Source: an uncultured virus (IMG/VR IMGVR_UViG_3300048571_000076) (Duplodnaviria; Heunggongvirae; Uroviricota; Caudoviricetes). From it: 20,000 nt of DNA. This document shows, one piece after another, positions 3,638 through 20,000 of the stretch. Location: IMG/VR virus record IMGVR_UViG_3300048571_000076; one strand, 5' to 3'. A program made the translations under genes and the position numbers. The notes under the pieces were generated by a model. The model was given only the letters and a program-made list of their open reading frames with translations. It was not told the DNA's origin and did not search any database. Numbering within the stretch: the first letter of the stretch is position 1; every line of letters starts with the position of its first letter.

Positions 3638-6600
3638 ATGAAATTATTTTCTGCCTTTAGTAATACTTTTGCAGATAAGATACAACCACTTAATAATCTA
3701 TATGAGTTAGCTCAAGCTCAAGAGTCATTAAATGGTTTGTATTTATGTACAGGTAATACAGTCGATGCTTCTTTTATTGGTCAAAGAGAGACAGTTGTAA
3801 AAACATGGTATGACTTATCAGGTAGCACTAATTACTTATACTCTTCTTCTCCAACTACTGCACCATCCTTTACTAGTGTAGATAATAATTTAAATCAGAA
3901 TGGTTCTATTGCTTTTAACATAGATGGTACACAGCAATTATTATTTAAACAACCTCTGAGTATAAAAACTATTATTATTGTTTACTATAGTAAAGATAAT
4001 CGAAGTTATTTAATTTATGCACCTTTAAATACACCCCCACCTGACCCGTTATACTATGATTTATTCCCTAGTTATACAGATACCATATGGTCTACCTGTA
4101 ATCTATCCAATAATTTTGCCTATAATTCTACAACAAGAATCAATACTCAAGTAAAACCTAGTACAACTAAATTACCTCTTAATTATCCTAGAATACTTAC
4201 TACTCATAACTTTGGTGGTAATAATCAGACAGCAGTTATACAAGGAATAGGAGGTAGATTAGGTCAACCAAATGGAGGGGAGCTAGTACAAGGTATAACT
4301 GATAGTGTTAAAGGTAACATAGCGGCTATTTTAACATTCTCTACTAGCCTACCTGATAACGTATTACTCGAATTAGAGTTAGCATTACGTTCTATTTATA
4401 TTAATTACACAGGTAGTACTGTGGTAGGTAATAAAACATTTAAATATTTAGTAAATGATACAGTTAATTTTGATTTCTCAGATATAGTTGTAGATGGTTG
4501 GGCTACACCTACTACTTATGAGGTATTACATCCCTTCACATTAAATCTAACTTTTAATGGTTCTATACTTCAAGGGTTTCTGACAACAACATATAGTGAT
4601 GTATTAACTATAAGGATAACTAATTCAATTGGTTTACAATCTACTCTTTCCTTTAAGTTCGAAGTGGTAAAGGCTGACCCATTAGTTGCATTACTACCTG
4701 AATTAAATAATTTAGAGTTAGTATTAAGTTCACATAAAGATAACATAACTAACACTACCTATGGTGTGTACACAAATGAGGATAACACTATAGCAAAGTG
4801 GGAAGATGCTAGAAGAGTAGGGAGTAATTTAAGTACATTAGTACCTAATGGTCAAACTATAGGTAATTATAATAATACATTAGCCTTACCTGACGTTAAA
4901 CTAAGTAATGGAGAACGACTGACTAGCTCTAATACGCTTACTATGAAGAGCTTCTTAATTGTTTATTTACAGAATCAGTACGGTAATCGTTATATATTAG
5001 ATGGATTGCCTGATAGAAGAGGTACAGGTGTATTAGTTACTACTAATTCTAATACTCAAATACACGGTCAAACTGATGTAACTCGTCTTGCTGTATCTGT
5101 TAACAAAGCAAAAGTAAATACTCTTTTATATAAATATAGTTTAAATAAGTTAGGTTTTATTTATGGCTATCAACAAGATAATATCAACATACCGATATAT
5201 GGTTTAGATAGTAGTAGAGGTTCTATATACTTTGTAGCTATATGGGATAAGAAACTAACCTCTGCTCAGTTAGATAATGCTATACAGGTTATAGCAGATA
5301 GATATATTACTAGTCAAACTCCCTTTATTGTAAACACAGACACAGAATATAAAAAAGTAGTTGATGTTGAAGTTGATTTAAGTACTAAAGTAGTTGATTT
5401 AAACAATAGAGCACTGAGTTACAACATACTTACTAATCATTACTCAGCTAATATTACTAATAATCTGTTGAATTTTACAGCAACACAAGATGAAGTATTA
5501 ACCTTTTCTATCGAGGTCACTAATACAGATAACTTTAGTATTATTCTGACATTTGATGTAGATATCACTCTCAGAACTAATCCGTTGTATTTAAATCTAA
5601 AAGATTACTTCGCTACAAGAGTTATACCTCCTACAGTACAAGATGTATATCTTGCTACGTTTGATAGCTTAGTATTTAGTTCATCGAATATTATTAATCA
5701 ATGGAAAGATTATCGATTAAATGGTAGAAATGCTACTGCATTGAATTTAACTACTCTTACTACTCCCTTGCTCGATGACAAACTTGCAGTGTCTTACCCC
5801 TTAATTGGTAATGGTTATATTGATTTTGATAATGATATAACAAGTTCAGATTTTATATTAGTATACGTAAAACCTAATATAGGTAATATATCTTTAAGTT
5901 TCTTAGGGAGTAACACGACTTTATTATGGTCTAGTTCTACTGACTTAGTAGATACTACTAGTTCTATCTCTGCTGTAGTATTTGGAAGTAAATTTGTAAA
6001 TAAACAAAGTGTAAATAATTCTTATAAGTTATTACCCTCAGTTGTTAATGTATTGTATTTACACACTACCAGTCCTATTACTGTAAATACTTTAGCTAGA
6101 CAAATGACTACTAATAATTTAAGTCTTAAAGGTACCTTGCCTTTATTTATGACAGTTAATAGAGAGTTAACCTTTGATGAGTTTAAAGATGTTGATAGTA
6201 TTATTAGAGATTACTATGACCCTTTACGTTTTATATTAATTTTACATTTTAACGGTAATACAATAGATTCTTCTACAGAAGCTGCTAATTTAATAGGTGC
6301 TTCTAGTTTTACAACCTCAAGCAAGTTTGGTTCACAAGCATTACGTTTATTACATTCTACAGGCACTAGTACCTTACAAGTCCCTAATGCGAATAACATC
6401 AGTTATTTACGAGAGTACTTCAGTATTAGTTGTTGGTTAAATATATCTAATACGTTAGCATCAAATACAGTACTTAATATATATACACAAGATGGTATAT
6501 CGATATATATCAAAGGTAATACTTTAGTTATAGCTAGGGTATTAAATAGTATAGATGTTTTAATTAGCTATGTGTTACCTATTTCTTTATATAGTAATCA

Positions 6601-6904: not shown

Positions 6905-7528
6905 ATGGTATATACAAGAGTCAGAAATTCTCGTTATGCTCAGTATCATCGAGCTACAGGTAGACTAGCTAATTTTACTATCCCTCGCGCTAAAACAGCT
7001 AATTTCAATCCTTATATGGATATGTTGAATCAAGGTATGTCAATGGGCGGTGATGTGCTAGGACAAATGGGCGGTGCTATTGGTAACGCTGCTCATGGTG
7101 GCATGGATATGCTACAGAATGCTAGTGGTGGTATTGCTCGTGGTATCGGTAATTTGATGGATGGTAATCTAGTTAATACTGCTGATGGTCTATCAGGTAC
7201 GGCTAGTAGAGTAGGTCAAACTATAGGTGATATGAGTACTGGTCAACAAGCTGGTATTGCTGGTACATTAGCTGCCGCTACAGGTGGTGCGGGTGCTGCT
7301 GTTAATAGTGCTCGTAAAGGAATGGGCGGTGCTGCTGGAGTTGTTGATGATGTTTCTGAAGCTGCTGGTGGTCTAACTCAAGGTTTACGTGCTAAGGCTG
7401 GAGCTGCTCTAGGTGGAGCTAAACAAGCATTGAAGAATCCCTACGCTATGGGTGCGGCAGGTCTTGGTACTGCTGGTGCAGTTGGGGGCGGTGCTTACGC
7501 AATGACACGTCCAGAAGACCAAATGTAA
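6905..7528 (+). CDS. Gly/Ala/Met-rich glycine-zipper protein, putative internal head/ejection protein
   Basis: 207 aa; basic leader with RLANF and KTANF; C-terminal hydrophobic MGAAGLGTAGAVGGGAYAM; AGGA upstream. Function is inferred from context. Confidence 0.6.
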   Translation: MVYTRVRNSRYAQYHRATGRLANFTIPRAKTANFNPYMDMLNQGMSMGGDVLGQMGGAIGNAAHGGMDMLQNASGGIARGIGNLMDGNLVNTADGLSGTASRVGQTIGDMSTGQQAGIAGTLAAATGGAGAAVNSARKGMGGAAGVVDDVSEAAGGLTQGLRAKAGAALGGAKQALKNPYAMGAAGLGTAGAVGGGAYAMTRPEDQM

Positions 7529-7552
7529 TTTCATTACTAAATAGGTTATTAT

Positions 7553-7583
7553 ATAGGGAGTCTAATTATACTAGACTCCCTAT
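7553..7583 (+). terminator. Perfect 12-bp stem-loop, probable intrinsic terminator or mRNA-stabilising hairpin
   Basis: ATAGGGAGTCTA-attatac-TAGACTCCCTAT, starting 25 nt after the 7528 stop; only a weak U-tract (tcattt) follows. Confidence 0.6.
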
Positions 7584-7607
7584 TCATTTGCAATTATTAT
7601 AAATATT

Positions 7608-8633
7608 ATGTATAAAAGAGCTAATTTCTCATATGACACTTTAACTTTAGCTGACCCTGATTTAATTAATGAAACATTAGGTCAATCTATTAGAACAGCT
7701 AATGCAGTAACTGATGCACTGCAGAAACGTCTGACTGATTATCCAATGGATGTATTTGCTGACCAAGCAGATGTTATTCCAGGTAGGATAAGAGAGGGAT
7801 TATTAAATACTCTTAGTCCTTATCATGCAGGAAAAACTGTGGGACGTAGACTAGAGGTTATGAATACACTAGGTATGGAGCAGGGCTTACCCGATATCAC
7901 AGGTAATATAAAACGAGGTATTAATCGATTAGGTTCTGATGGATTTAATGATTTATCCTCCACAATGGAAGGAGTTCGTAGGAAAGCATCTTCTATACAA
8001 AACAATATAAATAGTATTAGAGAAGGATTTGCTGGTGATAAAAATCCATACGGACTAACCAGTATACCTCAAGAACTAGAATCACCAGGAATAGGTAAAG
8101 TATTCACTGATAGAGAACAAATACCTCAAGAACTTTCAACTCCTTTTTTTCCTAGAAATGTAACTCCTCCTAATACACAGGCATTACTTGGTGGTGCAGC
8201 AGCAGGGTCAGGGGTAGCAGCAGGTTTAACAGCTCTTGGTAATAAAGTAGCTAGAAGTAAAACAACTCCTTTGACTCAGGTATCTTCTAAGTTTATGAGA
8301 GAGAGTAACTTAAGACAAGCTGAGTTTGGATTTATGCCTTATGCTATGGATATGTTAGAACAAGTTCAATTACCTAGCACTAATTCAATTGGGCAAGGTT
8401 TAGCGAAAGCGGGTGCTGGTATTGCTCGTACTATGGATAATATTGGTGTCGATGATGTTGCTAAAGGATTAGCTAATACTTATAGAAAAGTGAAAAGTCC
8501 TATGGATACAGCAAAGCAGGCTTATGGTATGATTAAACCTGCTTTAGAAGGTAATTTAGTTCACGCTAGAGCTATGCTACAATCCCCAGGTATTAGTCTG
8601 AAGGACTTTAACCCGATGCCTATGCGCGGATAA
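7608..8633 (+). CDS. Putative internal head protein with a glycine-zipper helix
   Basis: 341 aa; leader MYKRANF; hydrophobic ALLGGAAAGSGVAAGLTAL; internal linker MRESNLRQAEF. Confidence 0.55.
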   Translation: MYKRANFSYDTLTLADPDLINETLGQSIRTANAVTDALQKRLTDYPMDVFADQADVIPGRIREGLLNTLSPYHAGKTVGRRLEVMNTLGMEQGLPDITGNIKRGINRLGSDGFNDLSSTMEGVRRKASSIQNNINSIREGFAGDKNPYGLTSIPQELESPGIGKVFTDREQIPQELSTPFFPRNVTPPNTQALLGGAAAGSGVAAGLTALGNKVARSKTTPLTQVSSKFMRESNLRQAEFGFMPYAMDMLEQVQLPSTNSIGQGLAKAGAGIARTMDNIGVDDVAKGLANTYRKVKSPMDTAKQAYGMIKPALEGNLVHARAMLQSPGISLKDFNPMPMRG

Positions 8634-8634
8634 C

Positions 8635-9108
8635 TTATAATCCTTCAAATCGATTAATATCAGTTCTTAAGAAAATAGGTACATCTTTTAATGCTAACTT
8701 TTCATTAAGTCTAGCTTGTCTTCGTGCTTCTTTTTTATCTTTAAATCCTTGGACGAATGCTCGATTAGCTTCTAGTGTTCGTTTTTCTGCATCAGTCAAT
8801 GTATCTTGTTCGTCTCTTAAACGTAAAATCATATGTTGACTAAACGTAAATTTAGGATAATACTGCATATGTCCTTTTCGAGATAATTTGTGTACAACTG
8901 TGTACTTACCTAACCCAAACATATTGACTGGCTCTAGAGCGCAAATCTTTTGTTTAAGAAATTCATAGTAATGAAGAATGGCTTTCTCTACAATGTAATC
9001 TTCTAGAAAAACATCGGGATGTTCATCAAATAACATCTCTTTTATGAAATTGATAGCCTCTGAGTTTTCTGATAGTTTTTGTTTGGGTAGTATTTTGTTA
9101 TTTCTCAT
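8635..9108 (-). CDS. HU/IHF-like DNA-binding protein with a charged C-terminal helical extension
   Basis: EKAILHYYEFLKQKICALEPVNMFGLGKYTVVHKLSRK..YPKFTFSQHMILRL follows the HU pattern (helix, V-x-[LM]-x-G-[FL]-G-x-[FY]-x-V, arm, P-x-F-x-x-S). Confidence 0.65.
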   Translation of the reverse strand: MRNNKILPKQKLSENSEAINFIKEMLFDEHPDVFLEDYIVEKAILHYYEFLKQKICALEPVNMFGLGKYTVVHKLSRKGHMQYYPKFTFSQHMILRLRDEQDTLTDAEKRTLEANRAFVQGFKDKKEARRQARLNEKLALKDVPIFLRTDINRFEGL

Positions 9109-9150
9109 ATCTTTATCTGTGTGTGTTTATGTACCACGTTTATTGTATCT

Positions 9151-9171
9151 ACGTATAGTGATATTATATAA
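9151..9171 (+). promoter_or_regulatory. Candidate promoter upstream of MuF (extended -10-like TGA-TATTAT)
   Basis: ACGTATAGTGATATTATATAA; 18/21 identical to 18752-18772. Confidence 0.45.
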
Positions 9172-9195
9172 CATATCATATACCTACTTAATATA

Positions 9196-11871
9196 ATGGT
9201 TAATAGAATACCTACACCACGACATAGTTTACGTTATCGTTCCTTTAAGAAAGCACAGTTTGATAAACAACGTCGTGATAATTTAAAATCAATGACTGAT
9301 AAACCTATTGACTTCTTTGCAGATGAAAAGATAGCAAAGAATATAGCAAGTTATATCGATAAAACATCAATAGGAGAATTAGATTTACTATATTTATATT
9401 CAGATACAGCACTAGAGAATAAGATAACATCATTTTTACCTGATGTAGCTAGTGCTGCAAAGATAAGATTTAAGAAAACACTAAGACAAGGATATATCGA
9501 TTTCTTAGATTTAGGTATTCAACATACTATATTGGATTATCTATATATGTTACCTAAAGTAAAAGGGGTATTAGATAAATCACCTGCACGATTTTCTAGC
9601 TTTGATGGTACTTTGACTGATTTTGTACTAGGTAATTCAGAGACTATAGCAGAGTTTAATAGTTATGATGATTTAACTAAAAAAGAGAAAGATGCAATTG
9701 ATAGAGCAGATAATGAATTAAATCGATTAGCTAATTCATTAGATAGATTGGGTTCAAATGGTAAGCCAGGAGGTTCATCTACTATTGGTAAGTATGCTCT
9801 AAGTCGTACAGGTAGATTAGCTCGTATGAGTTTTGAAGAACGATATCGTTTCTTAATTATTATGCAAGACATTGATAATTTTAAGAAAAGAGCCGAAGTA
9901 AGTAAAAAGAATTTCGTAGCTGATACTTATTTAGATAGACGTTATCAGGTACTAGAAGAAGACCTTACAGGCAAATATAATGAATATGTTAAACAAAGAA
10001 TAGCTAGTTTTCTTAAAGAAGAGACTCGTTACTTAAGTACATTAAAAGGAAGAGGTGCTTCTGTAGAAGAACTATCAAGAGATATTCAAGCAAAGTTAGC
10101 TGAGTATGATAGAAAGGTTAATAAACTTAGCAAAAAAGCTACACAGGCACAGACAAATCGTACAAGATATGGTAGAAGAGCAGAGACAATTATAGCTACC
10201 GAAGTCTCAACTGCTTATAATTTTGGTAAGTTACTAGGTTTTAGTGGGCCTGAAGATTTAGAGAAACGTTTAACTTGGAGAGCAGACTGGGAATTACAGA
10301 GTAATAGAAGCGATTATGAAGTATGTAAATACTGTTCTTTAATGGATGGTACTTCTTATACAGTAAGAGAGTTATTAGTAATTGGTACTCAATTAGATAT
10401 AGGTGCAGGGGGGTTTGGTAAGGATTGGCCTGCTGGGGGTAGGACAGGATTTAAGAATCCTTCTTTACCTATGATACCTGGTCATCCCAACTGTGTTACA
10501 CCCGATATGCAAGTGCTGTGTTACAATAACGAGTATAAACGAATCGATTCTTTAAAAGTAGGGGATATAGTCATAGCTCCTACTGAAGAGTTATTCCATA
10601 AAATCTCATATATTCATAAAAATAAGCACAATGACTCAGTATACAAGATTAGATTTGATAACGGAACAGAATCAACTTTTACAGGAAATCATCCAATCCG
10701 GCTTTCTTCGGGATGGGTTGACGCTAGAGATGTTAAGGCAGGAGATATCGCATTTGAGTACATTGAGAAAAGTAATACCAGCTTACCAAATGTATCAAAC
10801 TACTCAAAATCAAAAAATAGTATGTCGCTCTTTGAAAATATCAGAAAGTACTTTGATTCGAATTTTAAAACTAAGTCACCTACATCGAACACTAAAAGAT
10901 GTGTTGGCTACTCGAAATATATCCGCCGAGATTCGAAAAGCTACCTCAGACAGAATGAAAAAGAACAATCCTGTACATATGCCAGGGGTAATCGAGAAGA
11001 TAAAAGCCACTCAGTTATTAAACAGCAATGGTTTAAAAACAGCTCATTACAAATCTTTGACTGGACGCGGGCATTATCGAGTAGGTATGCGAGAGGATTT
11101 ACAGCACTTTTTTCGAAGCAGTTGGGAAGCGAATATTGCTCGAATTTTAAATTATTTAAATCTACACTGGGAGTACGAGAAAGAAGTACCATTAACAAAA
11201 TATTCCAGTTATTTCCCAGATTTTTATCTACCAGATTACAATCTATATATCGAGGTAAAGGGATATTGGACATCAGATGGAAAAAAGAAATTCAAACATG
11301 CCCGAAAGAAGTACCCATTTATGAATCTGTTACTAATAGACCAAAAAGTATACAAGAAATGCCTATCGACTTTCAAAGACTTAATTCAATTCGAGTAATT
11401 GATGTGGAAATTATTGAGTATAAAGGGTATGTTTATAATTTAGAGGTTGAAGGAGCGCATACATTTATCGTTAACAGTGTACTAACACACAACTGTAGTT
11501 GTTTTTGGGAAATTGCGGGACTTGAAGAACGTTTAACGTCTGAAGAATTATATGAAGATGTGCCTATAGAATCTGTCAAACAATTAGACCCGAATGCTCT
11601 GACAGTACCAAGTAAGGCAGGAACTCTAGCTATGCAAGTAGCTGGTGCTGGTTTATTAGTAGGTGGTGCTTTCTTATTAGCTAGAAGTAATCTATGGAAC
11701 ACAGCATTTAGTAGTATGTTTAATAAAAATACCTATACGTTCCCCTTAGTACCATTTGATGATGTATTAGAAAATGTAGTTAAATATAGTGATGATGTAT
11801 TTGATGACTCTGTAACTCAAGCTGTAACAGATACAGTGATAAACAGTTTACCCGATATTAATTTGAAGTAG
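9196..11871 (+). CDS. MuF / SPP1 gp7-family head morphogenesis protein containing an intein
   Basis: RRAETIIATEVSTAYNFG, LTWRA, VCKYCSLMDG and the terminal PGHPN|CSC motif (cf. HPNCRC) split by an intein; C-terminal hydrophobic helix VAGAGLLVGGAFLLA. Confidence 0.85.
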   Translation: MVNRIPTPRHSLRYRSFKKAQFDKQRRDNLKSMTDKPIDFFADEKIAKNIASYIDKTSIGELDLLYLYSDTALENKITSFLPDVASAAKIRFKKTLRQGYIDFLDLGIQHTILDYLYMLPKVKGVLDKSPARFSSFDGTLTDFVLGNSETIAEFNSYDDLTKKEKDAIDRADNELNRLANSLDRLGSNGKPGGSSTIGKYALSRTGRLARMSFEERYRFLIIMQDIDNFKKRAEVSKKNFVADTYLDRRYQVLEEDLTGKYNEYVKQRIASFLKEETRYLSTLKGRGASVEELSRDIQAKLAEYDRKVNKLSKKATQAQTNRTRYGRRAETIIATEVSTAYNFGKLLGFSGPEDLEKRLTWRADWELQSNRSDYEVCKYCSLMDGTSYTVRELLVIGTQLDIGAGGFGKDWPAGGRTGFKNPSLPMIPGHPNCVTPDMQVLCYNNEYKRIDSLKVGDIVIAPTEELFHKISYIHKNKHNDSVYKIRFDNGTESTFTGNHPIRLSSGWVDARDVKAGDIAFEYIEKSNTSLPNVSNYSKSKNSMSLFENIRKYFDSNFKTKSPTSNTKRCVGYSKYIRRDSKSYLRQNEKEQSCTYARGNREDKSHSVIKQQWFKNSSLQIFDWTRALSSRYARGFTALFSKQLGSEYCSNFKLFKSTLGVRERSTINKIFQLFPRFLSTRLQSIYRGKGILDIRWKKEIQTCPKEVPIYESVTNRPKSIQEMPIDFQRLNSIRVIDVEIIEYKGYVYNLEVEGAHTFIVNSVLTHNCSCFWEIAGLEERLTSEELYEDVPIESVKQLDPNALTVPSKAGTLAMQVAGAGLLVGGAFLLARSNLWNTAFSSMFNKNTYTFPLVPFDDVLENVVKYSDDVFDDSVTQAVTDTVINSLPDINLK
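10492..11493 (+). mobile_element. Class-1-type intein (334 aa) inserted in the MuF HPN/C motif
   Basis: Starts CVTPDMQV (block A), then KRIDSLKVGD, block B TGNHPI, GWVDARDVKAGD; ends VYNLEVEGAHTFIVNSVLTHN with +1 Cys. Removing it restores GHPNCSC. Confidence 0.93.
10754..11398 (+). CDS. Out-of-frame putative homing endonuclease (HTH + NUMOD3-like + PD-(D/E)XK, T7 endonuclease I-like) nested in the intein; ORF open from 10631, preferred start TTG 10754
   Basis: Frame 2 encodes FRSSWEANIARIL..WEYE..YFPDFYL..YIEVKGYW (PD..EVK active site), SAEIRKATSDRMKKNNP (NUMOD3-like) and QKIVCRSLKISESTLIRILK (HTH-like). AGGAG at 10740-10744 lies 9 nt before the TTG; the start is uncertain (ATGs at 10631 and 10730 are alternatives). 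Confidence 0.85.
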   Translation: MSTLRKVIPAYQMYQTTQNQKIVCRSLKISESTLIRILKLSHLHRTLKDVLATRNISAEIRKATSDRMKKNNPVHMPGVIEKIKATQLLNSNGLKTAHYKSLTGRGHYRVGMREDLQHFFRSSWEANIARILNYLNLHWEYEKEVPLTKYSSYFPDFYLPDYNLYIEVKGYWTSDGKKKFKHARKKYPFMNLLLIDQKVYKKCLSTFKDLIQFE

Positions 11872-12130
11872 TCATATAAAAGAAAGATATAGGTTTTCTA
11901 TATAATTTACTGAATTGTAATAATTTAAAAGCACTGACATTACTACCTTTTTCGTATTTAGATATACTATCTTGAGATAAACCTAATTTCTCTCCTACTA
12001 CTTCTTGAGATAAATCTGCGTCAAGTCTAGCTTTTTTAAGTAAAGTACCTACATTTCTATTAAAAGAAGCAGTTTCACTAGCTGTTTCTTCTGTAATGGG
12101 TGCTCTTTGATAGTGATTAAGTAAAGACAT
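11858..12130 (-). CDS. XRE/Cro-C1-type HTH transcriptional regulator
   Basis: VGTLLKKARLDADLSQEVVGEKLGLSQDSISKYEKG..KLLQFSKLYRKPISFF is a canonical HTH_3 pattern. Confidence 0.9.
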   Translation of the reverse strand: MSLLNHYQRAPITEETASETASFNRNVGTLLKKARLDADLSQEVVGEKLGLSQDSISKYEKGSNVSAFKLLQFSKLYRKPISFFYMTTSN

Positions 12131-12160
12131 TTAATATAAAGAAGTATAATATAAGTATTC

Positions 12161-12178
12161 TACGTAAACCGTTACGTA
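12161..12178. promoter_or_regulatory. Interrupted palindrome, candidate operator
   Basis: TACGTAA-accg-TTACGTA in the divergent XRE/protease intergenic region, next to TGT-TATTAT (12180-12188). Confidence 0.45.
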
Positions 12179-12246
12179 ATGTTATTATCTATATAATATA
12201 CTGTATATACAAAGTCCGTAATAATTACTATAAAAAAGCTATTTAT

Positions 12247-13215
12247 ATGAAACGAAAAAGAAATCAAGGGTTAGTATATTTTGGTAATCAAGGATATAGT
12301 AACTTCTTTGAAGGAATGAATTCTGATGGTGATGGCGGTATCACTAAGAAAGCTCTAGTAGCTGTAGAAGGCACTTTTGATGATAGTCAAGGAAACTCAC
12401 ACACATTTAGTCCTGAGCGATTGAACACTATTGCTGACCATACTAATACTGCATTAGAGATGGGTAGTATTATTCCTGTATGTCAAGACCATAATAAGAC
12501 TGTAGATTCTACTGTGGGTACAGTAGATGGTATGGCTTATGTCAAACCAATTGAACAATCTGACCTACCTAATGCAAAGTCAACTCATCTTCTAGGTAAG
12601 TTAGGTTTGTTCTTAGAAGATGTGCATATCAAAACTGCAAACGCTGTTAATAAAGTTAGAGATGGTGTTGTTACTTCTGTCTCAATGGGATTGAATTTAG
12701 ACCCAAAAGAACATAGAATAATGGAGTTATCTCTCGTGCCTATTCCTGCTATTCCTAATATGGGTTTGTTTAGACATAAATCTGCTTCCTTCGGTATGCA
12801 AGAAGATATTGATTCTCAAGCATTTACATGGGAAGACCTAGAGCAAGATTCTCTCGCAATGGATGAATTGCAAGATGAATTTGATGACTTAACTAAGCAA
12901 CTATGGTTAATTCTAAAAAATATCTATACTTCAGACGCAGTTAACATTACTGATGTTAATGTGCTTAAACAATATGTTTACAGTGCGATGAATGGTTATT
13001 CGATTAGAGTTATGGATTTGCTTGGTTTGAATGATGAACCAGAACCTACTGACCCTATGGCCGATGCTTCTGCTATGAATGCTAGTCAAGCTCAACAAAT
13101 GCAACAAACTCAATTACAAGATGTGAATCAAGCATCTATGCCTATGGGTGCTGCATATGGTAAAGCTCAGAGTGGTTTGATTAACTTTAAGAAAGCGGCT
13201 ATCTATTTAAAATAA
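12247..13215 (+). CDS. Prohead protease (Mu gpI/assemblin-fold-like) with an acidic scaffold-like C-terminal part
   Basis: GTFDDSQG..FSPERL..IPVCQDH (candidate catalytic His), VG-x-V, VRDG..SVSMG (candidate catalytic Ser), IMELSLVPIPAIPNM; located near MuF; acidic and Q-rich tail after KSASF. Confidence 0.75.
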   Translation: MKRKRNQGLVYFGNQGYSNFFEGMNSDGDGGITKKALVAVEGTFDDSQGNSHTFSPERLNTIADHTNTALEMGSIIPVCQDHNKTVDSTVGTVDGMAYVKPIEQSDLPNAKSTHLLGKLGLFLEDVHIKTANAVNKVRDGVVTSVSMGLNLDPKEHRIMELSLVPIPAIPNMGLFRHKSASFGMQEDIDSQAFTWEDLEQDSLAMDELQDEFDDLTKQLWLILKNIYTSDAVNITDVNVLKQYVYSAMNGYSIRVMDLLGLNDEPEPTDPMADASAMNASQAQQMQQTQLQDVNQASMPMGAAYGKAQSGLINFKKAAIYLK

Positions 13216-13225
13216 GGACTGTACT

Positions 13226-14782
13226 ATGAATTTACTAACCGCTGAATACGGAACTAGACTATATCTTGCATCTTTCGCTAAGGTAGGTAATCCATTTGGA
13301 GAGGAACAAGAATATAAAGTAAAGATGAAAAACGGTGTAGTAGATGGTAGCCCTGGTTCTACATTAACTACCCAGAAAGGTACTCAAAAAGATATATCAT
13401 CTATAGCTCAGAATCAAAATAGAGGTGCTTTATCCGGTCTCACACCTTCTGAGGTAGATGTAGCAGACAGAGTATATCGAGGTAGAAATGACTCATTAGG
13501 TTTACAAGACCCTAATGTATTACAGCGTTATGCTTCGAGTCCTACTACATCGACTGCTGACCAAGCTAGGTTAAGTCAAGCAATTACGGGTAAGACTTTA
13601 AATACTCCTGAAGATTTACTTAAACAAGCAATCGCTAATCAACGTACTGCAACTGTAGCTAATGATACAGCAGGATTAGGAAGTACAAAACCTTTGTCAC
13701 TATCTTCATCAGAGTTAGGTAGTCGTTCTGCCCGTTCACAATCTCTAATTGATTCTAGAGATTTAGATGAGTTCTACCGTACTATAAATTCTGGTGGTAA
13801 ACCTAGTAGACAAGTTACAGATAAAGCTAGAACAGCATTACAAAACTTAACTAATGCTCAACGTACATCTGCGTCTCCTTTAGATGAATTACTAAATGCT
13901 ACTAAAGATGTAGCTTACTTAACTGATAATGCAAAACCTGCGAGTGTTACTCCAGATATAGCAGCAGCAGGTAGAAATAAAAAGAAAGCTGCCTTACCTG
14001 TTAAACCTACATACATTGACCCTAATTCTACAGATGTTAGTTATAAACCTAAAACTAGACAACCAGGACAAGTAAGTGGTGTCCAACGAAGAGCAGATAG
14101 ATTAACTCAAGCAAAAGATTATAGTACTAGAGCTGCTCAAAACTTACCTGCTGGTGGTGTTGTTACAGATGATTTACTATATACATTAGCTGGTCAACAA
14201 CGTCCTCCAACATTAGGTGAGAAAGTTGCTGGTGTGCCTGCTGCCATTGGGAAAGCAAAACAAGATGCTGAAGCACGTAAAGCTGCTGGTATAGCTAAAC
14301 GACAAGCAGCTAAGAATCCTCCTGCTCCTAAACCTTCTACTCCTGCTAATCCATTATCCTTAACTTCAGCTCCTACTGGCAAAACTAGTGGTAAAGCTAA
14401 AGGAAAATCCGATGCTATTACAGGTAAATTAAAAGTTGGTAACACAGATATAGAAGGAGAAGTTAATATACCTAAATGGTTAAGAGGTAAAGCAGAAGCT
14501 AAACCTAAAGTACCAGGGAAGTTAAAGATTAATAATCCAATTGATAATGGCTCTATTATTAAAACTATTAGAGATAAAGTTAGTAAACTTGCACCATCTG
14601 GTAAAGCTGGGTTACTAGCTGGAGGTGCTGTTCTAGGCGGCGCTGGTTTACTAGGAGGAGGGGCTTTGCTTGCTAATAATAATCGAATCAAACAGGAAGA
14701 GAGACAACGACAACTAGATATAGTAGCTCAACGTCCTCCAATGCTACCTCAAAATCAATTACCTAATCAATACATGTACTAA
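13226..14782 (+). CDS. Low-complexity, largely disordered basic protein with a C-terminal glycine-zipper helix; putative internal head protein
   Basis: 518 aa; AAGGA RBS; leader MNLLTAEYGTRLYLASF; K/P/A-rich body; AGLLAGGAVLGGAGLLGGGALLA near the C-terminus. Confidence 0.6.
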   Translation: MNLLTAEYGTRLYLASFAKVGNPFGEEQEYKVKMKNGVVDGSPGSTLTTQKGTQKDISSIAQNQNRGALSGLTPSEVDVADRVYRGRNDSLGLQDPNVLQRYASSPTTSTADQARLSQAITGKTLNTPEDLLKQAIANQRTATVANDTAGLGSTKPLSLSSSELGSRSARSQSLIDSRDLDEFYRTINSGGKPSRQVTDKARTALQNLTNAQRTSASPLDELLNATKDVAYLTDNAKPASVTPDIAAAGRNKKKAALPVKPTYIDPNSTDVSYKPKTRQPGQVSGVQRRADRLTQAKDYSTRAAQNLPAGGVVTDDLLYTLAGQQRPPTLGEKVAGVPAAIGKAKQDAEARKAAGIAKRQAAKNPPAPKPSTPANPLSLTSAPTGKTSGKAKGKSDAITGKLKVGNTDIEGEVNIPKWLRGKAEAKPKVPGKLKINNPIDNGSIIKTIRDKVSKLAPSGKAGLLAGGAVLGGAGLLGGGALLANNNRIKQEERQRQLDIVAQRPPMLPQNQLPNQYMY

Positions 14783-14794
14783 GGATATTTATCA

Positions 14795-16276
14795 ATGGAT
14801 TACACTACTAGAAAAGATTTTCAATTTAGAGCAACTAAGCAACATGTACGCAGGCAGATATCTGATAGCATTAGAGCTGATTTAGCTAATATGCAACAAG
14901 CCAAGAGCGACCATCTTGCTGACTTTATCTCTCCCGCTATTCGTAATTTAGGTTTACTTGGTGCTGGCTTAGGTGCGACTAAAGGTGCATTGGAACCAGG
15001 GCTAGATGATGCAGGTCAACCTATGAGCATGTCAGGGAGGTTAGGTAATATACTAACTAATTCTGTTATGGGTGGTGTAGCTGGAGCTGGGGCAGGTGTC
15101 GGATATAAAGCACTTAATCCAGGAGCTAATTCTATTGCTAGTAGAGTTGGTGGTGCTATATCAGATATACCTGATGCAATTGCAGGTAAGCAAGGGTTAT
15201 TAGATAAGATTACTGATACTGCTAATGCTGATGTATTAGATGTCAGACCTAGTAAAATTGGGGAAACAAGTAGAGCGGTTCAAGGCAGAATTAGACGTGA
15301 TAAGTCTAGAACTAAACAATTCTTTACAGGAAAAGGTCAAGGTGTAGTAGAAGAAGCGAGACCAGTAGGTAAGACTATTACTACAATTGACCCTACTACT
15401 CAAGAAGCGACAGAACAATTCATTCCTACTAAGAATAAATTTGGAGATGATGTAACAGAAAATGTAACATCTGTAACTAATAATGCTCAAATAGACCAAA
15501 CTCCAGGAGTTAAACGTGCAGCTCAAATCGCAGGTGCTACTATTGGTGGTGGTTTAGGTAGTGCATTAGGCCCACTGGGTACACTCGGAGGTGTTGGTGG
15601 TGGTGTTGCTTTAGGAAGTAAAGTAGGAGATGCTGTTGTAGAAACCGCTGATGCTATTAATTCTAAAGGTCTTTTAGGAGGCATAGCGGCAAAAGCATCA
15701 ACAGATTTAGAGAGAACGAAACAAGCACTTGACTATGTAGGTGATGTACCTAAGCAAGCTGTTACTGGAGCTATATCTGGTATCGGTAATGCTTATTCTG
15801 GTGTTACTCAAAATCCTACTGTACAAAAGGTAGGGAATACTTTTAGAGGTCAACTAAGAGATATACGACAAAACTTAGGTTTCGAGCAATCATCTAAACA
15901 TATAGTTCATTTTGGAAGTCAACCTATCAATGGCTATCAAATTGGTGCAGGTGCGGGGTTAGGTCTTGGTATAGGAGCAGGTGCTATTAGTCAAATTGCT
16001 GACACAATGAACAGACAGGGAGTTAGAGAGCAACAAGAAATACAAGACATTAATGCTATTGATAATCCGTATATGAGAGTTGGTGCTTATCAAGACTATA
16101 CGAGTGAAGACAATACTAATTTACGTAGTCTCAGAGATAGTGGTGATGTATTAGCTAGAGGCGCATTAGGTGCTGGTGTTGGTGCTGGTGTTGGTTTAGG
16201 AGTTGGTGGCTTTGCTGGTTCTTTACTTGATAACGCACAAAAGAAACGTGGTCTTTTAAGTAAATTAAGAGGTTAA
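14795..16276 (+). CDS. Multi-module glycine-zipper protein; putative internal head/ejection protein
   Basis: 493 aa; AAGGA RBS; HLADF and HIVHF linkers; at least five GxxxG-rich hydrophobic segments. Confidence 0.6.
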   Translation: MDYTTRKDFQFRATKQHVRRQISDSIRADLANMQQAKSDHLADFISPAIRNLGLLGAGLGATKGALEPGLDDAGQPMSMSGRLGNILTNSVMGGVAGAGAGVGYKALNPGANSIASRVGGAISDIPDAIAGKQGLLDKITDTANADVLDVRPSKIGETSRAVQGRIRRDKSRTKQFFTGKGQGVVEEARPVGKTITTIDPTTQEATEQFIPTKNKFGDDVTENVTSVTNNAQIDQTPGVKRAAQIAGATIGGGLGSALGPLGTLGGVGGGVALGSKVGDAVVETADAINSKGLLGGIAAKASTDLERTKQALDYVGDVPKQAVTGAISGIGNAYSGVTQNPTVQKVGNTFRGQLRDIRQNLGFEQSSKHIVHFGSQPINGYQIGAGAGLGLGIGAGAISQIADTMNRQGVREQQEIQDINAIDNPYMRVGAYQDYTSEDNTNLRSLRDSGDVLARGALGAGVGAGVGLGVGGFAGSLLDNAQKKRGLLSKLRG

Positions 16277-16280
16277 GTTT

Positions 16281-16619
16281 GTGAATAAGTATAGTCATTT
16301 TGGTTTACGTTCACCTATTCCTAATATAGACCTTTCTAATGCCCCTCCTGGTTCTTTACCACTTACATTAGGTTCTCAAATTGGAACAGGTGTAGGTGGT
16401 TTATTAGGTGTAGAGCGTAGTTTAGAAGAAGGTATGGATGAGGAAGGTAACTTAACTAACCCTCTTAAAGCATTAGCTAAATCTGCAGTATATGTGCCTG
16501 CTGGAGCTACAGTCGGTACTCTAACTGGTTTAAGTGGGGGTGTATTACTGAATAGAATGAGAGGCATTAATAATCTAGATGCTTTACGTTATACTAGTAA
16601 TCAAGTATTCAATAACTAA
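16281..16619 (+). CDS. Small glycine-zipper hairpin protein
   Basis: 112 aa; GTG start with GAGG upstream; leader MNKYSHF; two Gly-rich helices around EEGMDEEGN. Confidence 0.6.
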   Translation: MNKYSHFGLRSPIPNIDLSNAPPGSLPLTLGSQIGTGVGGLLGVERSLEEGMDEEGNLTNPLKALAKSAVYVPAGATVGTLTGLSGGVLLNRMRGINNLDALRYTSNQVFNN

Positions 16620-16635
16620 TAATAAATAAAAAATC

Positions 16636-17904
16636 ATGGGTAGATTATATCAAGCATATTTTGCTGATAAAACAGTAGGTATTAAAGAAGAGTTAAATGC
16701 AGGTAAAGAAACAGACAAGGTTAGTAGGATAGGTATTCCTGCTGCTAGTGAATCAAAAGCTACTCGCATTAAGGATATCATACAGAAATCTTCAGCTAAG
16801 AAAAGTAAATCAAATATAGCTTCTTACTTAACATCGGATATAGCAAAATCAAATCCTGATATCACTATTTCTATTTCTTTAGATAAAACATCATTAGGTG
16901 GTAGTAGTCAAGTTAAACCGCATATTGAACCGGATGATGATGATGATGTCGAAGATATGGATAGTATGACTCCTATGGGCACTAAGAGAAAGAAGTCTAT
17001 GGTTAATATGAGTAGAGGAGGAAGAAAGTACTCTAATTTCATATTTGGTTCTATACCGTCTAATGATGAAGCGTATGCAATAGGAGAAGGACGTAAACTA
17101 GGAGAATTAAAACAACCTTATTATGCTAAAAAATATGGGAATATAGGAAGATTAGGAGGTCTTGCTTTAGGAGTAGGTGCAACTGCAGCTTTGCCTCATG
17201 ACATATTTAACACTAATATATTAGCTCCTGAGTTATTTACTATGGGAGCTGGCGGTGCTGTATTAGGTGACTATATAGGTAAGGATATTGGTTCTAATCT
17301 AGCGGTACCTCTAGAAATAGCTAAAGCTACGAAGTTAAAACTATCAGGGATACAAGCCCCTATTCAAAAAAGAATTAATGAATTGAATACCCCTTCTTCA
17401 CTAGTATCTAATGTCACTGAAGAAGTAAGCGATGCTTTAGATTCTACACAAAACATAGGTTCAGATTTACTAGATAATACAGATGAATTTATTGATTCAG
17501 GTAAACAAGTAGGAAAAAGGTTACTTAATAATCCTAATGCACGGTTAGGTGCAAGCGGACTAGGTGTTGCTGGACTTGCAGGTAGTGCAGGTGCTTATTT
17601 GGCTAATAGAAACCAAGAACAATCCAATATGAGTAGTCGTTATGCTCAGGCTCCTCGTGCTTCTTTTAAGCATGGTGTATATCGAGATGCTAGTTTTGGC
17701 ATATTAGATGGTATATCTAAAACTACTGAAACTGGCCCGACTTTAGAAAACTTACGTACAACAGGAAGTGTAGCAGGTGGTCTTGTTGGTGGTTCATTAG
17801 GTGCTGCGCTACCAAATTCTAGAGTTATTAATTCTTTAAGAGATGGTGTTTTTCCTGCTGCAGGGGCTACGACTACTAAACGATACGGAGTTCTCGGTGC
17901 TTAA
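16636..17904 (+). CDS. Multi-module glycine-zipper protein (probable polyprotein)
   Basis: 422 aa; leader MGRLYQAYF; internal MSRGGRKYSNF, MSSRYAQAPRASF and RDASF separate a charged module from Gly-rich modules. Confidence 0.6.
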   Translation: MGRLYQAYFADKTVGIKEELNAGKETDKVSRIGIPAASESKATRIKDIIQKSSAKKSKSNIASYLTSDIAKSNPDITISISLDKTSLGGSSQVKPHIEPDDDDDVEDMDSMTPMGTKRKKSMVNMSRGGRKYSNFIFGSIPSNDEAYAIGEGRKLGELKQPYYAKKYGNIGRLGGLALGVGATAALPHDIFNTNILAPELFTMGAGGAVLGDYIGKDIGSNLAVPLEIAKATKLKLSGIQAPIQKRINELNTPSSLVSNVTEEVSDALDSTQNIGSDLLDNTDEFIDSGKQVGKRLLNNPNARLGASGLGVAGLAGSAGAYLANRNQEQSNMSSRYAQAPRASFKHGVYRDASFGILDGISKTTETGPTLENLRTTGSVAGGLVGGSLGAALPNSRVINSLRDGVFPAAGATTTKRYGVLGA

Positions 17905-17906
17905 TT

Positions 17907-18740
17907 ATGTATAAGCTAGCGAAATTTAATTTAATGGGTAATGTAGCTGCACGTATGTTACCAAATGACCCTAGTAAAGTAATTGATATTGCTCAGAATC
18001 TAGGTAAAGTTAAGAATAAAGTCGCACCTACTCAAGCTGCTTCTACCTTTCTAGGAGGTGTAGATAATCTAGCAGGAGATATTGGTGCTGGTATTGGTGT
18101 TATGACAGCAGCAGGTGGTGCTGGTGTTAACAAGATGTTAGGTGCTAATACTAATCTAGGCAATAAACTCAAACAAATGGGCGTTAACACAGTCTTAGAT
18201 GGTGATAAGAGTAAGTTACTCGGACGAGGTTTACTTGGTACAGGTGCTGCTGCTGCTATTGGTGGTACTGGTTTAGGTGTCAAAGGTTATTTAGATAAAA
18301 ATATGGAGCAAATCCCAGAGGAACTAATGGGCGAAACAGACGCAGAAACGGTACAGAATTGGTTAGCTTATAAAAATGCTAATGGTGGATTTAGTCATAA
18401 ACGATATGTTACTTTTGCCATGCCTGGTTTAGGTATGATGAAAGCAGGTGGTTTACTAGGAGGAGGACTAGGAGGTGTTATGGCGCAAGGTGAAATAGAC
18501 CCTGTAACAGGGCAGCGTAAGTCTGCTAATCTAGGTGATAGATTTAAAGGTGCTTTAGTTGGTGGAGCATTAGGTGCAGGCGCTGGATACGGTGCCTCTA
18601 AAGCTATGCCGCTTGTTAAAAATAATTTAAATAAAGTTAATAATAAGTATGATGTATGGGATTCCACCCCTTCTAACACTCCTAACAAACCTATACTGAA
18701 AGAACCAGGGCAAAAAACAGATTATAGTGTTTGGGATTGA
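17907..18740 (+). CDS. Two-module glycine-zipper protein
   Basis: 277 aa; leader MYKLAKF; linker GGFSHKRYVTF; four Gly-rich hydrophobic segments; ends YDVWD..YSVWD. Confidence 0.6.
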   Translation: MYKLAKFNLMGNVAARMLPNDPSKVIDIAQNLGKVKNKVAPTQAASTFLGGVDNLAGDIGAGIGVMTAAGGAGVNKMLGANTNLGNKLKQMGVNTVLDGDKSKLLGRGLLGTGAAAAIGGTGLGVKGYLDKNMEQIPEELMGETDAETVQNWLAYKNANGGFSHKRYVTFAMPGLGMMKAGGLLGGGLGGVMAQGEIDPVTGQRKSANLGDRFKGALVGGALGAGAGYGASKAMPLVKNNLNKVNNKYDVWDSTPSNTPNKPILKEPGQKTDYSVWD

Positions 18741-18751
18741 TACTAACTACG

Positions 18752-18772
18752 ACATATAGTAGTATTATATAA
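18752..18772 (+). promoter_or_regulatory. Candidate promoter, near-copy of the motif upstream of MuF
   Basis: ACATATAGTAGTATTATATAA in the 18741-18823 intergenic gap. Confidence 0.45.
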
Positions 18773-18823
18773 TAAGAATTAATATACATTGATATATTCA
18801 TAAAAGGATAAATAATAATTACC

Positions 18824-19180
18824 ATGAAAAAAGGTTATAGAACTAATAGTTTAATTGCCTTCTCATCTAATTTACAAACGGCTAATTTTGGTGTAGGTAA
18901 AATTATAGGTGAAGGTATTAATAAAGTTGATGATGCTATTAGATGGGGGTCGGGTCACGCTTCGGAGCAACTAGGTAAAATAGGTGCAGACAAGGGATTT
19001 GGTTTTAGACATAGTATTGGTCAATCCGGTAAAAATTTAGGTGACTCTGCTTGGCAGAATGCTAATAAAATTAGAAACGGGTTAGGTATTGGTGCCGGGG
19101 TGGGTGCAGTTGGTTTAGGTGGTATGGCTCTTGGTTCAAGAGGTCAAAAGCCAAATCAACAACGTCAACCTGGGATGTAA
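18824..19180 (+). CDS. Small glycine-zipper protein
   Basis: 118 aa; AAGGA upstream; leader MKKGYRTNSLIAFSSNLQTANF; C-terminal GLGIGAGVGAVGLGGMALG. Confidence 0.6.
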   Translation: MKKGYRTNSLIAFSSNLQTANFGVGKIIGEGINKVDDAIRWGSGHASEQLGKIGADKGFGFRHSIGQSGKNLGDSAWQNANKIRNGLGIGAGVGAVGLGGMALGSRGQKPNQQRQPGM

Positions 19181-19208
19181 ATTAAGTATAAACAAGGATA
19201 ATAATAAT

Positions 19209-20000
19209 ATGGATTTGAATCCACAAAATGCCTTTGGTGTGTTACTTTTAGACCTTATCGAAGCACAATACGGTGTTATTGATAATGGACTAATTGCTCT
19301 AATGCAAACCACTGGACTAACAGAACAAGAAGTAGTTGGAATCATCAATGGTGATTTAATTGTAGAAAGTGAGCAACTTCTTTCTGGTTTGATTCAGGCA
19401 TTCCCTGATGCTGACCAAGAAGATATCTCTGTTGTAATTGATGTAGCAGTTGGCGTATCGGAATCCGATGCTAACGACCTAGCAACAATGAATCAAGAAG
19501 CTCAACAAACACAAGCTCAACAAGCTCAAGCTCAAGCTGGACAAGGTGCTTCTCCTGAAGCTGCTGGTGGTGGTTATGATGCTGAAGGCGGAATGGGAGC
19601 AGAGGGAGCTGAAGGTGGTTTTGGTAGACGAGGAAATACAGTGAATTTTAGCAGACAAGTTGCCGATACTCTAACACTGCAACAACAACAAATCAATCAA
19701 TTGACAGCAGGAATCTCGAACTTCCAAGCTCAGACAGCTCTAGCTGAAAGATTGAAAGATATTGATACCGTTGCAACTAAGTATGTGAACAATGGTATGT
19801 TGCCTCCTAGCTATAAATTGATGCTAGTTGGTGAGTTTAAGAATGATAAAGAGAGATTGGCTAAGTTCGGTCAAATCGCTCAACAAAATGGTGTTGATGT
19901 TCCATCGATGCTATTCGCTACAGAATATGCAATTAGTATGTTAGCTGATGCGTCTCAGTTTGTTGAATTCTCGGATTACTCTTTGTCGGAAGATGAAGTA
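19209..20000 (+). CDS. Probable capsid scaffold/core protein (3'-truncated; absent from the ORF track)
   Basis: ATG 19209 with AAGGA RBS; open to the window end (264 codons: MDLNPQNAFGVLLLDLIE...SEDEV). Acidic N-domain, Q/A/G linker, GGFGRRGNTVNF, then a coiled-coil-like segment with ISNF, LAKF and VEF. The scaffold call is inferred from composition and position. Confidence 0.55.
   Translation, partial: MDLNPQNAFGVLLLDLIEAQYGVIDNGLIALMQTTGLTEQEVVGIINGDLIVESEQLLSGLIQAFPDADQEDISVVIDVAVGVSESDANDLATMNQEAQQTQAQQAQAQAGQGASPEAAGGGYDAEGGMGAEGAEGGFGRRGNTVNFSRQVADTLTLQQQQINQLTAGISNFQAQTALAERLKDIDTVATKYVNNGMLPPSYKLMLVGEFKNDKERLAKFGQIAQQNGVDVPSMLFATEYAISMLADASQFVEFSDYSLSEDEV

Follow-up and report, generated by a model that had tools for sequence, protein, structure and literature searches.

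A short A-x-F tag on the predicted prohead protease, scaffold and candidate cargo proteins of an uncultured virus related to Pseudanabaena siphophages

This analysis concerns a short peptide word, A-x-F, in the proteins of an uncultured virus (IMG/VR IMGVR_UViG_3300048571_000076; Caudoviricetes), in a stretch of 20,000 nucleotides (the window) that forms the terminal 20 kb of a 71-kb virus contig. The 3' edge of the window lies inside an inferred scaffold gene, and the capsid gene is therefore missing from it. A first-pass annotation of this DNA had proposed that a basic leader ending in [ASVI]-x-F is shared across the head module, as a Phe-specific signal for capsid targeting and for processing by a protease encoded at 12247. 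The true signal is tighter, A-[N/D/E/S/Q/K]-F with ANF as its best form (hereafter the tag), and it is a protein-level, Phe-specific signal limited to the flanks of the protease, the scaffold and a set of candidate cargo proteins.

Genes and tags in the window

The predicted prohead serine protease (12247..13215, +) has its core at residues ~28–180, with His82 at 12490 and Ser146 at 12682, and carries VYF12, SNF20, ASF182 and INF314. It is 52% identical to proteins of the Pseudanabaena siphophages Pam2 (ON014754) and PA-SR01 (MT234670), in which the genes run MuF-HTH (helix-turn-helix)-protease-variable genes-scaffold-decoration-capsid. The gene order of the window agrees, and by sequence and synteny the window phage is placed as a relative of Pam2 and PA-SR01. 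The clade comprises 231 protease clusters at 50% identity and is described as one of freshwater siphophages; a 126-kb phage contig of the clade (G004:C155, L023) lies within a metagenome-assembled genome labelled Chroococcidiopsis, which is a label only.

Two candidate cargo genes lie upstream of MuF. The first (6905..7528, +) encodes a Gly-rich basic protein of 207 amino acids (aa) with ANF at 6968–6976 (F24) and 6998–7006 (F34), which ranks 1 of 90 with the weight matrix described below and at its N-terminus weakly resembles the open reading frame (ORF) at 74963 of contig G002, in the same gene position. The second (7608..8633, +; 341 aa) has the leader MYKRANF (F7, 7620–7628) and an internal AEF (F240, 8319–8327). 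A conserved reverse-strand gene (8635–9108, −) stands ahead of MuF; its ortholog Pam2 gp9 has a weak HU/IHF-like match, is without an N-terminal tag and is marked in the Pam2 virion table as found by mass spectrometry (MS). The MuF-like head morphogenesis protein (9196..11871, +) has AQF at F22, an internal AEF at F154 (9649–9657) and an intein (10492–11493, +) whose interior stays open in frame. A 255-aa endonuclease ORF (10631–11398, +; Phage_endo_I match) lies wholly inside this intein in the +1 frame, giving ~770 bases of dual coding.

Six further candidate cargo genes follow the protease. These encode a basic low-complexity protein (13226..14782, +; 518 aa, isoelectric point (pI) 10) with ASF at F17 (13268–13276), a glycine-zipper protein (14795..16276, +; 493 aa) with ADF44 (14918–14926) and an internal VHF373 (15905–15913), and a 112-aa protein (16281..16619, +) with the leader MNKYSHF (Y4 and F7; 16293–16301). 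Next come a three-module protein (16636..17904, +; 422 aa) with AYF9, SNF135 (17032–17040), ASF344 and ASF354 (17659–17697), whose internal tags are preceded by internal Met residues, as fused leaders would be, and a two-module glycine-zipper protein (17907..18740, +; 277 aa) with the leader MYKLAKF (17919–17927) and an internal VTF170 (18408–18416). The conserved last cargo gene (18824..19180, +; 118 aa) has IAF13 and ANF22 (18881–18889), and A20 and F22 of its product are invariant in 5/5 orthologs. The putative scaffold protein (19209..20000, +), acidic with a pI of 4.1 and cut by the contig end, has aligned internal copies at VNF147, SNF172, AKF220 and VEF254.

The motifs and coordinates of the first-pass annotation are correct, with Phe codons at 6974, 7004, 7626, 12304, 12790, 13186, 13274, 14924, 16299, 16660, 17925 and 18887, as are its counts of two Phe in the 6905 protein, both in ANF, and three in the 13226 protein. 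It overlooked internal copies in the 7608 (F240), 14795 (F373), 16636 (F135, F344 and F354) and 17907 (F170) proteins, and those in the scaffold (F147, F172, F220 and F254).

A tight motif within a loose pattern

As first proposed, [ASVI]-x-F is too loose to describe the signal. It is near background in the six window cargo ORFs (13 matches vs 9.7 ± 2.4 in shuffles). Within the first 45 aa it is also present in 34/82 control ORFs of this genome and in 252/663 control N-termini (38%) of five relatives. Two traits thought to set these proteins apart also failed to do so: cargo proteins are indeed low in Phe (1.9% vs 4.25%), but their Trp and Cys drop by as much, and MQHFANF, the commonest Pam2 leader, is not basic.

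Held-out counts were made on five further contigs (G001–G005), read whole, with the cassette set by position alone as protease to scaffold on the same strand. The tighter A-[NEQDKSHYT]-F shows a clear enrichment. In the window genome it is found in 5/7 vs 5/82 ORFs, three of the latter five being the 6905, 7608 and MuF genes, and in the first 45 aa of the held-out proteins in 15/24 cassette ORFs vs 52/663 others (p = 1e-10), the residue class having been picked after viewing the window, Pam2, PA-SR01 and related loci and thus not being blind to these genomes. ANF itself occurs there in 11/24 protease/cargo ORFs vs 11/663 others. Compared with shuffles, held-out ANF counts are 11 vs 1.0 in cargo, 7 vs 0.3 in proteases and 6 vs 0.5 in scaffolds; they are not above shuffles in capsid, decoration and portal proteins (0 vs 1.1), tail/neck proteins (4 vs 5.2) or MuF (0 vs 0.5).

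In an unbiased word count over 39 candidate proteins, A-x-F ranks first among 400 X-x-Y words, with 88 occurrences where 33 are expected, and ANF leads the tripeptides (28 vs 2.1 expected). These proteins show no other enriched word and no second conserved site downstream of the leaders. By genome, A-x-F ranks 1, 1, 1, 3, 14 (the window genome) and 15. Ala stands at −2 of 84/307 Phe (27%, expected 10%), and there is no such excess at Tyr, Leu, Ile, Met or Trp. The tag frequently takes a doubled form, [V/I/Q]-x-[H/Y]-F...A-[N/D/E]-F, and A-[NDE]-F is followed by G/A/S/N at 34/58 sites (expected 33%, p = 7e-5) and by Pro at none. A weight matrix trained on 59 sites from G001–G005 only puts nine window candidates at ranks 1–5, 11, 12, 15 and 17 among 90 ORFs (p = 2.5e-6). 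A site in the tail ORF at 3638, at rank 19 of 90, was rejected. The motif codons differ synonymously between copies, so the signal sits in the protein, and a DNA-repeat or RNA-level explanation was rejected for the same reason.

The prohead protease

The AlphaFold2 (AF2) model of the 12247 protein has a confident core at residues ~28–180, with a predicted local distance difference test (pLDDT) score mostly >90, and the tags at F12, F20, F182 and F314 fall in low-confidence segments flanking it. The top fold matches among 48,161 chains include the varicella-zoster virus (VZV) protease (Z 10.2, root-mean-square deviation (rmsd) 3.2 over 114), T4 gp21 (Z 9.4, rmsd 3.2 over 121) and the human cytomegalovirus (HCMV) protease (Z 8.2). 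The Atlas model gave Mu-like_Pro at a template modelling (TM) score of 0.69 and matched S78 clusters too, and phrog_976 was matched with E 9e-10; a sequence search of PDB and Pfam returned no protease family. His82 and Ser146 are invariant in 63/63 aligned proteases (the query plus 62 homologs; of 72 in all, 10 were excluded as self-matches, near-duplicates or partial sequences), and their catalytic role is assumed here from family knowledge. By its modelled fold the 12247 protein is a predicted prohead serine protease, Mu gpI/S78-like with an assemblin/T4 gp21-type fold, and it presumably acts on head proteins.

Motif sites in the 63 aligned proteases are found in the leader of 57, in the linker after the core of 30 and in the C-terminal 30 aa of 36, and the core itself is nearly motif-free (9 matches in 8,835 residues). 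The tag wanes with distance, being present in 40/47, 30/44 and 22/44 distant homologs (of the 144 examined, 135 had a near-full core), and the protease of the distant Bacillus phage PS1 is without such a leader.

Scaffold, capsid, portal and MuF

The gene at 19209 probably encodes the scaffold; in the relatives, the scaffold gene lies directly ahead of the decoration and capsid genes. The window scaffold is without an N-terminal leader and its tags are internal only. Capsid and decoration proteins have no leader (the capsid proteins of eight relatives were checked for a tagged one), and portals have no conserved leader. On a gel of PA-SR01 (PMC10286775), a 47-kDa band was attributed, from its size, to the capsid protein at full length, for which 46.4 kDa is computed. 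The KKAQF leader ascribed to MuF is absent in 7/7 homologs, and the N-terminal AQF (F22) was rejected as a tag site because it is not conserved; the internal A-[E/S]-F near residue 150 (AEF at F154 here) aligns in 7/8 sequences. The idea of a tag shared across the head module therefore holds for protease, scaffold and cargo, but not for capsid, decoration and portal proteins or the N-terminus of MuF.

Virion proteomics of phage Pam2

Pam2 phage was CsCl-purified, and 27 proteins are marked as found by MS in Table S2 of its report (PMC9382816), on which the following counts rest. The test covers 189/191 ORFs, with gp35 and gp92, both negative, left out. A pre-set leader pattern occurs in 9/27 detected vs 12/162 undetected proteins (odds ratio 6.2, p = 6e-4), and in 9/25 vs 6/45 on the forward strand only (p = 0.036). 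Six leader-like orphans (gp37, 41, 42, 44, 57 and 146) had been flagged before the table was seen, and five of them are MS-positive; the seven remaining pattern matches (13 in 142 Pam2 ORFs) are all MS-negative. Post hoc, [ASV][NDE]F within 25 aa is found in 13/27 detected vs 10/162 undetected proteins, one of the 13, the RuvC gp59, probably by chance. Tagged proteins are enriched in Pam2 virions, and the capsid-targeting half of the original proposal is supported to this extent, with a scope narrower than the head module.

The tagged Pam2 orphans are dispersed round the genome and start MQHFANF, MQHFVNF, MQHFSNF, MEHFANF or MIHFANF. The MS-positive gp46 instead ends in QHFANF-stop, which is kept in its G005 ortholog, and the tag therefore need not precede a cut that frees anything. 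The protease and scaffold (gp18) of Pam2 are MS-negative. The cassette genes are listed as hypothetical in the Pam2 report, in the main text of which the word "protease" is absent. Pam2 gp22 (L001:22807-23346), a protein of the neck region that is MS-positive, carries a conserved internal tag at ~residue 55–75, preceded by a basic N-terminal part; genes in the same position in G001–G003 and G005 share this internal tag.

Candidate cargo proteins

BLAST divides the 66 cargo proteins into 48 components, and the tag therefore sits on unrelated bodies. A tag-bounded module moves between ORFs (residues 219–299 of Pam2 gp17 correspond to 358–438 in G005), the tag is placed before an SNF2 helicase domain in G005 and PA-SR01, and internal tags often retain Met, as expected from fused leaders. 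A Pfam scan of 25 leader-bearing or neighbouring orphans gave a meaningful family for two only (SNF2 helicase and DUF5754); a weak apolipoprotein match was set aside. The window cargo is mostly basic (pI >9 in 7/8), Gly-rich and mostly Cys-free, with several glycine zippers, features that would be in keeping with binding to DNA or with crossing a membrane during ejection.

Several other genes may be mentioned here. A lone forward ORF among reverse-strand genes outside the window (G000:C1:1134-1610, +) starts MYLTINF|G, has matrix rank 8 of 90 and is likely a dispersed cargo gene of the window phage. L027:1709-2890 (−), in G002, is a tagged orphan with DUF5754. L028:922-3558 (−) is an 879-aa tail-region gene that starts with a tag. 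A 269-aa ORF (G000:C1:46268-47077, +) looks by eye like an EAL (cyclic di-GMP phosphodiesterase) domain, and a 172-aa ORF with zero Phe (G000:C1:433-951, −) has a GG-H/Q motif and looks similar to part of a peptide-chain release factor.

Discussion

The explanation favoured here, with moderate confidence, is that the tag does both jobs, docking proteins into the prohead and then being cut after Phe by the 12247 protease. Taken separately, it is likely that the tag loads cargo into the capsid, and its sequence context suggests that it probably marks a head-protease cut site after Phe: Phe as the residue before the cut (P1) would fit the A-x-F grammar, the small residue after it (P1') and the want of a second conserved site downstream. 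A-x-F marks the protease, the scaffold and a group of Gly-rich basic proteins that changes rapidly, and may dock its carriers by attaching them to the scaffold core or the inner shell. The protease would then cut at A-x-F|G/S/A/N, its core releasing itself at its own flanking tags, the scaffold being fragmented at internal tags and fused cargo being split into modules, after which the cargo would be ejected into the host. New genes could enter the cargo set by acquiring a 7-residue leader.

Several observations weigh against this interpretation. A-x-F ranks only 14th of 400 words in the window genome (13 vs 6.8), because the window tags are degenerate. The proteases and scaffolds counted are homologs of one another, so their counts are not independent. 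The window cargo proteins are without a BLAST match to any MS-positive Pam2 protein, so that the MS support transfers to them by synteny and motif only. A cut after the Phe of HFANF-stop in gp46 and its G005 ortholog would remove nothing, and tagged gp37, gp16 (internal tags only) and the MuF protein gp10 of Pam2 are MS-negative. The absence of protease and scaffold from the virion is expected with or without cutting, and Table S2, which gives plus or minus only and no peptides, is silent on cleavage and on a place inside or outside the capsid.

An alternative that is rather unlikely is that the tag serves docking only, with Phe, often paired with a second aromatic residue so that the two occupy positions 4 and 7, plugging a pocket in the scaffold or inner capsid, and the protease sparing the tag or using a looser rule. 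This would suit the terminal copy on gp46 and its ortholog, as well as the modal tag position F7 (11/41 leaders), since T4 IPIII and IPI have Y/F4 and F7, and in the T4 account consulted targeting lies in residues 4 and 7 and processing in residues 8 and 10 (PMC9026906). The capsid protein also has a similar [A/E/Q]-[D/E]-F at its C-terminus in 8/8 sequences. Docking alone, however, leaves an apparently active protease with no other enriched word or conserved downstream site, and does not account for the precise placing of tags where the protease core begins and ends and where modules join, nor for the small-residue bias after Phe, which is typical of a protease S1' site.

That the tag is a cleavage site only, with the protease trimming leaders and packaging achieved by basic charge, glycine zippers or DNA binding, is improbable. 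The A-x-F grammar does parallel the A-X-E of SPN3US and S/A-X-E of phiKZ in the literature consulted, and the composition of the window cargo agrees with such packaging, but 7-residue leaders with nothing else to remove stand on the unrelated virion proteins gp39, 41, 42, 44, 118, 186 and 187 of Table S2, and the copy at the end of gp46 is hard to explain unless the tag addresses the protein. Least probable is that no head-assembly signal exists and the tag reflects a host-protease or export signal (Prp-like), fused-gene relics or compositional chance. In favour of this, host Prp is reported to cut phage head proteins after Phe (F|A, S. aureus 80alpha; PMC5744158), several internal tags retain Met as gene fusions would, and loose [ASVI]-x-F is near background. 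On the other side, the held-out enrichment is far above shuffles, the tag is restricted to virion proteins, the scaffold and the flanks of the protease, the phage has an intact protease of its own, and the capsid protein, which Prp cuts in 80alpha, is leaderless in the relatives.

Beyond the preferred reading of docking followed by cutting, a broader proposal can be put forward only tentatively, at somewhat less than even confidence. It holds that M-x-H-F-A-N-F is a clade-wide, T4-independent delivery code, a capsid address and Phe-specific cut site in one, which would turn any gene, even an SNF2 helicase, into injected cargo and would work at either end of a protein or inside a polyprotein. 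If true, the tag would account for about a dozen "hypothetical" virion proteins of Pam2, supply a sequence rule for spotting likely injected proteins of uncultured cyanophages, and could be put to direct use in packing proteins into cyanophage heads and delivering them to cyanobacteria. Cultured models and existing virion MS make the tag hypothesis directly testable.

Comparison with known systems

Searches of the open-access literature for a Phe-specific prohead protease, or for the present tag, returned nothing of the kind. In the sources consulted, prohead-protease rules have Glu as their last residue, and T4-like heads are the only ones with proven capsid-targeting tags; both pictures would be broadened by a siphovirus whose Mu-type protease follows a Phe rule.

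The Pam2 and PA-SR01 genomes share with the window the syntenic MuF-HTH-protease-cargo-scaffold block, the protease and the tag, but not the cargo bodies, which are unrelated. The Prp system of S. aureus 80alpha, the known case of processing at Phe, is similar in its cut after that residue (F|A) and in an N-terminal motif common to non-homologous virion proteins. Prp, however, belongs to the host, where its usual task is to trim ribosomal protein L27, and its substrates include the capsid protein (PMC5744158), whereas the candidate enzyme here is a phage prohead serine protease, and the capsid and scaffold N-termini are without a tagged leader (Prp was not searched for in the host); no cargo loading is described for Prp in that source.

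The phiKZ gp175 and SPN3US gp245 proteases (S/A-X-E and A-X-E; PMC10052503 for SPN3US) offer the same arrangement of small P3, any P2, fixed P1 and small P1', with several redundant sites per leader and self-sites in the protease. Their fixed residue is Glu, whereas here it is Phe and the enriched word is A-x-F. The SPN3US capsid and portal are cut, whereas here neither has a conserved leader, and unlike these jumbo myoviruses the present phages are siphoviruses with genomes of ~140 kb.

The closest likeness is to the T4 capsid-targeting sequence (CTS) of IPI-III and Alt and its protease gp21. Both systems place a short N-terminal tag on unrelated, variable virion proteins, here 48 components with MS enrichment in Pam2 according to Table S2, both have an aromatic residue 4 and Phe 7 (T4 IPIII and IPI vs Pam2 leaders), and both have the same protease fold and many motif copies in the scaffold. 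In T4 the cut falls after L/I-X-E, further along than the Phe, and the capsid protein is cut too, by the account consulted (PMC9026906), whereas here no X-x-E is among the top words, no conserved Glu follows the leaders, and the capsid protein of the eight relatives has no tagged leader. The protease here is also predicted to be Mu gpI/S78-like. The relatives are siphoviruses whose portal is of the Mu type, and tags are internal and C-terminal as well. By analogy, this is likely a cargo tag that resembles the T4 CTS but follows a new, likely Phe-specific rule, in a clade of siphoviruses that has a Mu-type protease and cultured models.

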